Assembly: GCA_951406725.2 (NCBI GenBank)
Contig: OX597816.1
Location: 42,532,001 to 42,596,000, forward strand
Source of the DNA: Octopus vulgaris
Taxonomy: Eukaryota
Reading direction: 5' to 3'
Length of the DNA: 64,000 nt
Within the stretch, counting starts at the first letter, position 1. Each line of letters starts with the position of its first letter. Position numbers and translations under genes: made by a program. Under the pieces are notes generated by a model. It had not been told where the DNA came from, ran no database searches, and saw only the letters and a program-made list of their open reading frames with translations. Below are positions 19,551 through 22,850 of the stretch, piece by piece.

Positions 19551-20333
19551 TTAACCGAAAACATTTTCGGTTTCACTTAACATACATTGAAGTGTACACT
19601 ATGCCCAAATATTAGAGATGACGCTTTTCAAAATAAAAAGCTTACGGATAACTCTGCGTCCTCATCCGTCATCCAGTTCTTTAAATCCGTTAGACTAGGA
19701 TATTTTGTGGGGCAATGTTAGGATGACATTCTAATCTAAGCTGTATATCCTACATGTTTTGGTGTCAACGATTTCAGTATTCTTCTTCTCGAAATAACCG
19801 AAAAACATGTTTATAAATAAGACTTACTTGCTTCACACTCCTCGAGTGCAGATTCTGCCCATAAGAAAGAAACAAATAAAACAATGTAGATATAGGTCAT
19901 AACAACCGGACAATATACATACATATATATATATATATGTATATATATATATATATATATATATATATATATATATATATGGTTTACGGAATTAATGTTA
20001 TTTTGCGGTTAAAGCTTTTGGCTGTTATTTCTAGTGGGTGAATGGCCTATTATGGCCGTTCCTTGATTGTGATGTTGAACGTAAAAATGGTTTATGACTA
20101 TTTAATTTTTTCCCACTAGGCCGTTGGTGGCAAAAGAATTCTACAAAATTTTTTTGCCACCCTATATTGATTAATTATGAATTTTCTGGTTAGTTCCGTA
20201 ATGGAATCGGTGGCTTATATTTATTTGCTGCCGATAAATTTGGCGCGAGTGAGACGATTTGAAAATTTTAGGTCAGATATTGCCGAGGTAGCAAGAGGAA
20301 TGCCTCGTGAAAAATATCTGTTCCGACTTGGCT

Positions 20334-20440
20334 ATTTCTTACTGATGAGTCTAAGGGCCTATGGTGGATTGGCTTGATTTAATTTAATCAGGTTAGTTTA
20401 CCATTAAACGGTAGATGAAACGGTGCATCGTCTAAGAAAT
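20334..20440 (+). ncRNA. Type I hammerhead ribozyme, copy 1 (predicted cleavage after C20432)
   Basis: Stem I ATTTCTTA (20334-41)/TAAGAAAT (20433-40); core CTGATGA (20342-48); stem II GTCTA/TAGAT plus a 19-bp hairpin; GAAA (20417-20); stem III ACG-GTGCAT-CGT; GTC cleavage triplet (20430-32). Confidence 0.85.
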
Positions 20441-20823
20441 TACAGGGTAAAAGTTTTTCAATTTTCTCCTGGTTTACGGAATTAATGTTATTTTGCGGTT
20501 AAAGCTTTTGGCTGTTATTTCTAGTGGGTGAATGGCCTATTATGGCCGTTCCTTGATTGTGATGTTGAACGTAAAAATGGTTTATGACTATTTAATTTTT
20601 TCCCACTAGGCCGTTGGTGGCAAAAGAATTCTACAAAATTTTTTTGCCACCCTATATTGATTAATTATGAATTTTCTGGTTAGTTCCGTAATGGAATCGG
20701 TGGCTTATATTTATTTGCTGCCGATAAATTTGGCGCGAGTGCGACGATTTGAAAATTTTAGGTCAGATATTGCCGAGGTAGCAAGAGGAATGCCTCGTGA
20801 AAAATATCTGTTCCGACTTGGCT

Positions 20824-20930
20824 ATTTCTTACTGATGAGTCTAAGGGCCTATGGTGGATTGGCTTGATTTAATTTAATCAGGTTAGTTTACCATTAAACG
20901 GTAGATGAAACGGTGCATCGTCTAAGAAAT
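20824..20930 (+). ncRNA. Type I hammerhead ribozyme, copy 2 (predicted cleavage after C20922)
   Basis: Identical to copy 1, shifted by +490. Confidence 0.85.
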
Positions 20931-22850
20931 TACAGGGTAAAAGTTTTTCAATTTTCTCCTGGTTTACGGAATTAATGTTATTTTGCGGTTAAAGCTTTTG
21001 GCTGTTATTTCTAGTGGGTGAATGGCCTATTATGGCCGTTCCTTGATTGTGATGTTGAACGTAAAAATGGTTTATGACTATTTAATTTTTTCCCACTAGG
21101 CCGTTGGTGGCAAAAGAATTCTACAAAATTTTTTTGCCACCCTATATTGATTAATATATATATATATATATATATATATATATATATATATATATATATA
21201 TATATATATATATATATATATATATATATATATATATATATATATATATATATATGAAACAAAGGCGACTGAAGAAGGGGAATTTTCCTTGTATTGTATG
21301 TCCTGTACTCTATTTTTTCGTTTTTTAAGAAAATTGTCCATTTCCTTGGTTTTGTGTTTATGTTTTCGTTTCTCATTGTGTTTGACGTTTTTGTTTTGGT
21401 GTCCTGTACCCATATATGCGTGTATATATACATGTAGAGGTAGGTACGTACATATATGTATGTATATATGCATATGTTTTATTTTATTTATTAATTTTAT
21501 ATATATATATATATATATATATATATATATATATATATATATATGCATATTTAAAGCGCCTGTGCGTGAGTGTGCGGAGTTATGTATAACCATGTATACA
21601 TGCATACATATACATACAGACATACATTATATACATACATGTATATGCACATACACATGATCGAGTTTAGATGTCATTGTGTATCTATGTACTTGTGTGT
21701 GTTTGCGTGTCTGTATGAGTGTGTCTAGAATTCCTTTCTTTACAATATTTTACATTCATTAATGTATTTGACACATTGAAAATACTTTTAAACGATGGAG
21801 ATTGGCATATTTTTGAACAGAGTTTCCCACAGGGAATTAAATTATTTTTTCAAACAGTGTAAACGTTATTACCTTTCCCCCAACACACATCCATTCAACG
21901 TGTTTCTCACTGACTATACACTAGTCAACAGGTACAGGAAGCTGTCAGAAAATAATTTTCAGAAGTTATTAACCAGAGAAGGAATAGAGTGTCATAGTCC
22001 GGAAGAGCCAATGAAAAAAAAAATCAGCAATAATTATGTTAATAGTGATGGATGTTGTTCCTGACACGAACTAGGTTAGACAGGATGTTATGAGTTTCGG
22101 AAGATTCATGACTCGTTGGACCAATCAGAGTACCGCAGAAATTCGAAGAAAACTGTAACCGAAAGTAAATGTTCTTTTTTTTTCTCACTGTTACTAATAC
22201 TTCCGTATATGTAAGTATATAAATATAACAGTGTGTAAATATGAAATGCTTGCTTGTGGCTGTATGTGTGTGTATGTGATATTGCGTATAGCTAGTGACT
22301 AATTATGTGATTATATATATATCTCATACAATTTTAAGCCTAGCAGCGTTATTAAATTTGTATATAAGATAGGGTGTATAAAATGTTACACGCATGTGCG
22401 CTTGTGCATGTACGTTTGTATATTAATATGTAGAGTGATGCATATGTGTGTACTTGTGTGTGCATGGAAACGTATGTGTGTACATATATATATATATATG
22501 TGTGTGTGTGTGTGTATATATATATATATATATATATACATACATACATATATATATATATATATATATATATATATATATATATATATATGTGTGTGTG
22601 TGTATAGCAAAATACAGTAGAGCATGAACGTATTCGTCTAATTGTGGCTTACCATTTCACTACTACACCATCGACAATAGTTTTTTTCTGCGAAAGCATG
22701 CAGCACTACACTTGCACTACAAAGTTAAACTTATCAGTAATTAGCTTCACTCACACGACCTTCGCCCCCGTGTTACAGCATTTGTTTACACTCCAGTTCC
22801 AAGCTTCAGTTAAAATACTTGAATTAACGTCTAGATCAGTTTGGTTTGTA

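Follow-up and report, generated by a model that had tools for sequence, protein, structure and literature searches.

A young hammerhead-bearing tandem family of Octopus vulgaris, a probable retrozyme with the insertion footprint of Penelope-like elements

Type I hammerhead ribozymes in short tandem repeats are known from the non-LTR (long terminal repeat) retrozymes of metazoans, whose units measure 150–450 bp and for which reverse transcription of a primed circle into tandem cDNA, with a Penelope-like element (PLE) as partner, was proposed in 2020 (PMC7229834). Retrozyme re-insertion was linked to PLEs in a preprint of 2026 (bioRxiv 10.64898/2026.07.22.740005); as far as these two accounts go, the insertion step is not shown. 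PLE insertions are described as lying in (TA)n, with a tail at one end only and a truncated copy in inverted orientation (PMC8557442); their reverse transcription is described as starting at two internal sites, with a predicted dimer that nicks the two target strands and extends both (PMC11167929). In a 64,000-nucleotide stretch of the Octopus vulgaris genome (assembly GCA_951406725.2, contig OX597816.1, forward-strand positions 42,532,001 to 42,596,000; hereafter the window, in whose numbering coordinates are given unless a locus is named), a preliminary description made from the letters alone had noted a 490-bp tandem element with intact hammerheads and suggested a retrozyme copied from circular RNA. 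Here, we report that this element belongs to a large and young family of standalone, non-coding hammerhead retroelements, and that it is very probably a non-autonomous non-LTR retrozyme mobilised in trans by a PLE enzyme. The fuller reading, in which the PLE-mobilised retrozyme is copied mainly from a monomer circle, is the best explanation as a whole, and we give it a probability of roughly 65%.

Tandem-repeat analysis recovered a 490-bp period at 19980–21155 (2.4 head-to-tail copies, 99% matches), flanked on both sides by (TA)n as had been described:

19913–19979, no strand: left (TA)n target, adjoining the truncated 5' end of the array at monomer position ~38
19980–21155, + strand: single-armed retrozyme array of 2.4 x 490 bp, truncated at the 5' end and terminating 3' at start site B (monomer position 233–236)
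20433–20922, + strand: 490-nt monomer between both predicted cleavage sites, a candidate circular RNA (position 1 of the monomer numbering is 20433)
21154–21255, no strand: right (TA)n target, which would be the primer side of target-primed reverse transcription

The full units differ by one substitution (A20252 versus C20742), and the partial third copy is identical. This substitution is a singleton, absent from the other 67 loci considered below and from the contigs of four public runs. The longest stop-free frame in the unit is 68 aa, in line with the earlier statement that it encodes neither reverse transcriptase (RT) nor transposase, and unit GC content is 37%. The + strand folds at z -5.2 (0/100 shuffles as good) and the - strand at z -3.3.

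The assembly searched comprises 2.8 Gb in 227 contigs, ~30 of them chromosome-scale. A DNA search with the unit returned 230 matches, mostly of 96–100% identity, in the 40 scored of 966 candidates, and because these are spread over many contigs the window array is not an assembly artefact. An exact 22-mer of the hammerhead core occurs 426 times genome-wide (control 0), and the stem III/cleavage motif 3155 times, 1244 with GUC and 1911 with GUA (controls 1 each). Subfamilies range from ~90% identity down to ~72%, the latter with 473–475-bp units. For locus-level analysis, we used 68 non-redundant close loci, consisting of the best DNA-search matches and every cluster among the first 100 listed 22-mer matches; the former group is biased toward similarity, and the only bias of the latter is its dependence on the exact 22-mer. 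A PLE open reading frame (ORF) was attached to the array in 0/68 loci (one protein query), and PLE remnants lie 0.9–1.8 kb away, beyond TA runs, in 4/68. The organisation of an autonomous PLE with its pseudo-LTR (pLTR), in which an ORF with RT and GIY-YIG domains is flanked by the repeat, was likewise not seen in these loci, and no LTR organisation was found in the family, for which no dedicated search for primer-binding sites or polypurine tracts was made. What is present is a type I hammerhead in each tandem unit, and short, non-coding, low-GC units dispersed over many loci. The earlier reading of a recent, standalone element is supported.

The ribozymes and associated structures are located as follows:

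20334–20440, + strand: hammerhead 1, type I; stem I 20334–20341/20433–20440, core CUGAUGA 20342–20348, stem II 20349–20353/20412–20416, GAAA 20417–20420, predicted cleavage after C20432
20361–20404, + strand: 19-bp hairpin inserted in loop II, its pairing retained across subfamilies
20420–20431, + strand: self-complementary stem III 12-mer, pairing with its second copy at 20910–20921 in the predicted double hammerhead
20824–20930, + strand: second hammerhead, identical to the first and predicted to cleave after C20922

Every type I part named in the preliminary description was located in both full units, namely stem I (ATTTCTTA/TAAGAAAT), CTGATGA at 20342 and 20832, a 5-bp stem II closing with G.U, GAAA, stem III, and GTC with its C at 20432/20922. 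Stem II carries a 58-nt insert in its loop, which includes the 19-bp hairpin. A strict type I motif scan of both strands of the 64-kb window found only these two hammerheads. The Rfam model Hammerhead_1 (RF00163), which had been proposed as a check, matches both sites (20336–20438 and 20826–20928, E 0.034) with the whole model aligned; its score of 22 bits is below the gathering threshold of 34, though core, stems and covariation hold. Across 13 diverse hammerheads of the family, 95.9% of the cells in the helices are paired and 10/38 pairs are altered on both sides; 0–1 of 500 shuffles did as well, and pairing in slid controls was 27–44%. The 13 sequences are related and were included only if they carried the anchoring motifs, so that an invariant core cannot count as separate support. 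All four bases occur at core position 7, and the cleavage triplet is either GUC or GUA. The loop II hairpin is paired in 96% of cells across subfamilies (10 pairs vary on one side and 1 on both), and the self-complementarity of the stem III 12-mer survives several substitutions, with a few exceptions.

Considering predicted folding, the unconstrained structure of 20334–20930 is a double hammerhead (-192.6 kcal/mol, versus -175.8 for two single ones), in which the two ribozymes of a multimeric transcript, paired via the 12-nt palindrome, are predicted to release a monomer of 490 nt. The length anticipated earlier is thus retained in the prediction, with the double form favoured over the single motifs that had been assumed. 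The circular monomer is predicted to prefer a non-ribozyme fold, by 3.9 kcal/mol (free -144.8, as a hammerhead -140.9). Both energies fit a known scheme in which the ribozyme cuts in multimers and spares circles (PMC4209133).

The 3' ends of the arrays coincide with two putative start sites of reverse transcription, placed in the window as follows:

20530–20563 (also 20040–20073 and 21020–21053), + strand: start site A, an 8-bp hairpin with a CCTTGATTG motif at 20551–20559; 3' ends of the family at monomer position 131
20616–20668, + strand: start site B, a covarying hairpin with a CCTATATTG motif at 20651–20659; 3' ends of the family at monomer position 231–236
21106–21155, + strand: copy of site B, the actual 3' end of the window array

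Among the 108 arms of the 68 loci, 103 end at site A or B, which are ~105 nt apart. Ends at A fall at monomer positions 126–141 (33 exactly at 131) and ends at B at 231–240 (37 exactly at 236), each site being preceded by a hairpin and a CCTNNATTG motif. This motif occurs twice in 114/117 GUC-type and 17/18 GUA-type monomers; covariation was counted for the hairpin of site B. At least three TA repeats follow the arm in 99/108 cases, extending the (TA)n flanks noted in the window to other copies. Inverted two-armed arrays, with the truncated 5' ends meeting inside, make up 40/68 loci. Of these 40, 35 combine one A end with one B end, none is A+A or B+B, and in the other five a single end is odd (because of an assembly gap in one case, in two rearranged loci that show A and B on inspection, and for no evident reason in two); the chance of 35/35 A+B is ~3e-11. 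The 28 loci scored as single-armed end at B (18, like the window array) or at A (10, two of which have a tiny B arm). The same rule was seen in the 72%-identical subfamily, with A+B in 10/10 loci where both ends were detected (26 examined). Most targets are pure (TA)n, including that in the window, and direct target duplications of 38–67 bp were recognised in 3/68 loci, versus 0–1 in five shuffled pairings. A fixed one-ended tail, an inverted truncated arm and (TA)n targets together form the footprint of a PLE. Free circular permutation of both array ends, as the preliminary description had expected, is ruled out, as the 3' ends are fixed and the 5' ends alone vary; its other expectation, repeated copying of one unit, is upheld below. 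Two loci deserve separate mention. L120 (8983–9030) holds a minimal two-armed insertion of ~50 bp, made of a site B end plus the site A hairpin and end, which shows how little abortive events copy, and at L079 the two flanks share 24 bp of target DNA, duplicated in inverted orientation.

Arms are longer than one unit in 81/108 cases and longer than two in 46/108, the longest reaching 8969 bp. Where units join at the cleavage site, 232/236 junctions are exact and 4 carry single substitutions, with no indels. Within any one locus, subfamily variants are almost always fixed, and the private substitutions comprise 23 that are fixed in all covering units (20 loci), 14 that are partial and 121 singletons. 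Private variants are fixed over three or more units at 11 loci and across both arms at 8. The 31 loci with two or more full units show 19 fixed haplotypes, with 1.8 differences within loci versus 6.2 between them. Seamless junctions and private variants fixed across units argue that one monomer was copied repeatedly at insertion, probably as a circle, and we regard a monomer circle as the probable main template.

In the mechanism we propose, the double hammerhead would cut a 490-nt monomer out of a multimeric transcript, and the monomer would then be ligated into a circle. A PLE protein with RT and GIY-YIG domains, probably a dimer, would bind the two hairpin and CCTNNATTG signals and nick both (TA)n strands, with one cDNA primed at site A and the other at site B. 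Each RT would circle the template a variable number of times, after which the two truncated ends would be joined back to back, or one arm would fail, as in the window. A minority of events would use a multimeric or an already cut linear RNA as template.

Several observations weigh against this reading. Four non-fixed variants are in register in both arms (in L047, L049, L064 and, doubtfully, L071), versus 66 that are discordant, and a 6-bp deletion is present in 5/6 units of L045 and of L083. In-register variants and mixed deletion units are impossible from a monomer circle, and multimeric templates are suggested by 3–4 loci. Periodic variants in the 20-unit array L031/L032 suggest local expansion, and the base of stem II carries an A.A mismatch in some copies of subfamily B. 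From described systems, only 1/9 predicted Xenopus dimers cleaved (bioRxiv 10.64898/2026.07.22.740005), and the anole PLE enzyme is reported to have unprocessed RNA as its main substrate, with ribozyme cleavage unneeded in vitro, and to show no strand difference in start site, unlike the strict rule found here (PMC11167929). Finally, a search for a partner ORF via ends carrying CCTNNATTG yielded none in the loci examined and two more tandem families instead. Counting in favour of our reading, the 5' ends are mildly enriched just 3' of the cleavage site, with 4/107 at positions 1–3 and 11/107 at 1–20 (p 0.004 each, in a hand-corrected list with one gapped arm dropped and with two of the four ends at 1–3 from one locus), which hints that some templates were cut there. 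The inverted arms of L038 (G000 C14:56931000-56938000) differ in unit number, yet each of the two terminates precisely at the predicted cleavage site.

The explanation that survives best beside ours keeps the two-site priming by a PLE and takes as template an uncut linear (or multi-unit circular) transcript of the source array, so that the ribozyme plays a minor part in insertion. This would account for the in-register variants and the mixed deletion units, 5' ends at the cleavage site fit the end of a linear RNA, and the substrate of the anole enzyme is in its favour. It is at odds with the 11 loci whose private variants are fixed over 3–7 units, five of them across both arms, as such fixation needs a one-unit bottleneck. 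In addition, no ordered unit-specific pattern common to loci was seen in the table of shared variants, read by eye, and covariation indicates that the ribozyme is maintained. We consider this explanation unlikely, while taking it seriously. Less probable by far is that short PLE-type terminal-repeat insertions were later expanded in place by unequal exchange or gene conversion, in the manner of a minisatellite, a route suggested in the discussion of bioRxiv 10.64898/2026.07.22.740005. Periodic partial variants in L031/L032 and L033 are in its favour, and it could also yield private fixed variants. However, there are only 14 partial variants against 121 singletons, so that the units within a locus are star-like, and near-identical multi-unit arms stand on both sides of the inversions. 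An RT jumping end to end between cut linear monomers, rather than rolling on a circle, would give head-to-tail units joined at the cleavage site and arms that stop at position 1, as some do; with 0/236 junctions carrying an indel, and with the mixing of haplotypes expected from switches between molecules being rare, we think this very improbable. An ordinary pLTR of an autonomous PLE, whose ends and inversions would look exactly like these (PMC11167929, PMC8557442), or an assembly artefact can be dismissed almost entirely, given that one protein query detected no attached PLE ORF in the 68 loci, that a hammerhead match beside a PLE (L221) is a retrozyme copy nested in that PLE's TA tail, that up to ~18 unit repeats run without coding sequence, and that the family is spread across many contigs and also occurs in public runs labelled with four organism names.

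The window itself contains one PLE, which had been suggested as a relic of the trans-acting enzyme:

49112–50407, + strand: decayed 5'-truncated PLE (RT, Cys linker, GIY-YIG), located by tblastn and not part of the retrozyme

This element, placed earlier near 49170–50450, is real. It is 52% identical at the amino acid level to an open 811-aa ORF elsewhere in the genome (tblastn), the relatives of which carry RT and GIY-YIG domains, and its Cys linker suggests the Neptune/Nematis type, going by the motif in PMC8557442. Its family also forms inverted insertions, with a one-ended tail of ~36 nt and an end motif unlike CCTNNATTG. No hammerhead was found in this family, and none of its 44 loci, which represent one family in a genome with 7122 PLE candidates, is similar to the 490-bp unit, bar the separate mini-insertion in L120. 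Because of the different end motif, the ~36-nt tail and the lack of both unit similarity and a hammerhead, the window PLE is probably not the driver, and the 44 loci lend it no support as partner. The end footprint sustains the idea of a Penelope-type enzyme acting in trans, for which this neighbour is an improbable source. A PDB relative of the PLE ORF was not found. Loci L116–L129 hold a young autonomous PLE family with open frames of 766–816 aa, inverted arms and a tail of ~36 nt; a one-ended tail was seen in 3 of the 6 autonomous loci listed. L120 and L122 have a separate upstream ORF of 350 and 461 aa, respectively, the latter without a Pfam match, and no hammerhead was found in this family. 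The PLE proteins P0025, P0043, P0056 and P0071 are listed in assemblies of bacterial gill symbionts from bivalves, where they probably represent host contamination.

CCTNNATTG also marks the ends of two unrelated tandem families, one with a 560-bp unit (L041) and one with a 484-bp unit (L127), and all three families may share one enzyme. The 560-bp hammerhead family (L041:5899-6458, also L039, L081, L083, L137 and L146) ends at CCTCAATTG, with its two ends roughly 85–100 nt apart, and on inspection shows inverted one-of-each insertions in (TA)n. The 484-bp unit (L127:7799-8465, - strand) has a hammerhead-like type I motif, read by eye, and runs from a CCTTAATTG end into (TA)n. In ~1 Mb of DNA, many other type I hammerhead candidates were seen that have a palindromic stem III and are unlike one another (L035, L047, L057, L065, L082, L136, L154, L162, L169, L172 and L202), and the genome seems rich in ribozyme families.

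For expression, contigs were available from four runs that we guess to be RNA. All 29 bins of the unit are covered, as is the head-to-tail joint; since the DNA arrays contain this joint too, it does not speak for circles. Among 23 run entries, 14 of them guesses, none carrying the family is recorded as RNA, which bears neither way on expression. One further feature of the unit is relevant here:

20447–20448, + strand: GT, 14 nt 3' of the cleavage site; the same point in a related subfamily joins a host exon in a contig of one run

That 834-nt contig (run X2) passes from a GUA-type copy, at the GT, into an exon of NFU1, at the AG acceptor (L190:1530; G000 C25:4191966, - strand), with Pfam Nfu_N in the next exon. 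The joint looks like splicing in the ribozyme sense, an apparent exonisation into a host mRNA; its source copy was not found among the first 100 matches listed for each of two sequence patterns.

We put forward tentatively a more specific model, which we hold to be possible but somewhat short of even odds. An RT dimer would sit on two signals ~100 nt apart on one ribozyme-made circle, with each subunit rolling from its own site into opposite (TA)n strands to give back-to-back multimer arms, the double hammerhead would serve as a switch that cleaves multimers and leaves circles intact, and the 490-, 560- and 484-bp families would have converged on, or inherited, CCTNNATTG for one enzyme. If true, these loci would document rolling-circle target-primed reverse transcription at the genomic level, and the asymmetric PLE tail would be explained. 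The family provides base-exact start sites, a strict rule of one site per arm and a pattern of one template per locus. It makes the proposed mechanism directly testable in vitro and bears on two features of PLEs that lack an explanation, the tail and the inversion structure. It also adds a likely cephalopod retrozyme, with more than 3000 ribozyme motifs and, in one case, apparent splicing into a gene of the host.

Elsewhere in the window, a related SINE-like (short interspersed element) repeat forms tandem copies (184 bp x3 and 117 bp x2) at 22883–23439 and 51673–51906, in which the motif scan found no hammerhead. Broken frames at 48405–48903, with a 136-bp duplication inside (48581–48855), have a putative likeness to a Tc1/mariner-type transposase, and 63529–63689 is a degenerate interstitial TTAGGG-like repeat. 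Rfam miRNA matches in the window are (TA)n artefacts, and bacterial promoter matches are irrelevant, the host being a eukaryote.

The literature searched yielded neither a retrozyme from a cephalopod nor a description of dual fixed ends in such elements; repeat databases and supplements may hold the family. The closest described systems are the retrozymes of coral, mussel and axolotl (PMC7229834), which share a type I hammerhead in each short, GC-poor, non-coding tandem unit and the absence of LTRs. In those retrozymes target duplications, when visible, are long and variable; in the octopus family, 3/68 loci show the direct duplications of 38–67 bp given above. The octopus element differs in its 490-bp unit, its 58-nt loop II insert and its 12-nt covarying palindrome, as well as in its fixed dual 3' ends and inverted two-armed arrays, which are not described in the text consulted of that paper. 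Vertebrate retrozymes (bioRxiv 10.64898/2026.07.22.740005), with units of 51–972 bp, a range that includes 490 bp, are likewise non-autonomous, tandem and found together with PLEs. As presented there, their PLE link consists of co-occurrence and of pLTR homology in Xenopus, in 35 genomes without molluscs and with ends unanalysed, whereas the octopus link is an integration footprint, with pLTR homology not found in 44 PLE loci of one family. Poseidon of Anolis (PMC11167929, PMC8557442) shares AT-rich or (TA)n targets, two internal start sites with a hammerhead shortly upstream, a one-ended tail and an inverted 5'-truncated copy; as described, it differs from the octopus element, which has no ORF, a tail of ~105 nt rather than 30–40, arms that are multimers of a short unit, and strictly one site per arm. 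The double hammerheads of newt satellite 2 and the minimal hammerhead ribozymes (PMC4209133) share palindromic stem III/loop pairing between tandem copies, compared with which the octopus palindrome is longer (12 nt), with a 4-bp intramolecular alternative and long stems I and II. MRC1 and other Chlamys PLEs (PMC8557442) are also non-autonomous, multicopy head-to-tail insertions moved by a PLE; they are green-algal and, in that account, belong to clades with an N-terminal endonuclease and without canonical hammerheads. Overall, the octopus element resembles non-LTR retrozymes in its hammerhead-bearing units, their short, dispersed, non-coding character and the absence of LTR organisation. It is an element of a known kind, and its loci provide good genomic evidence for a mechanism that had so far been a proposal only.

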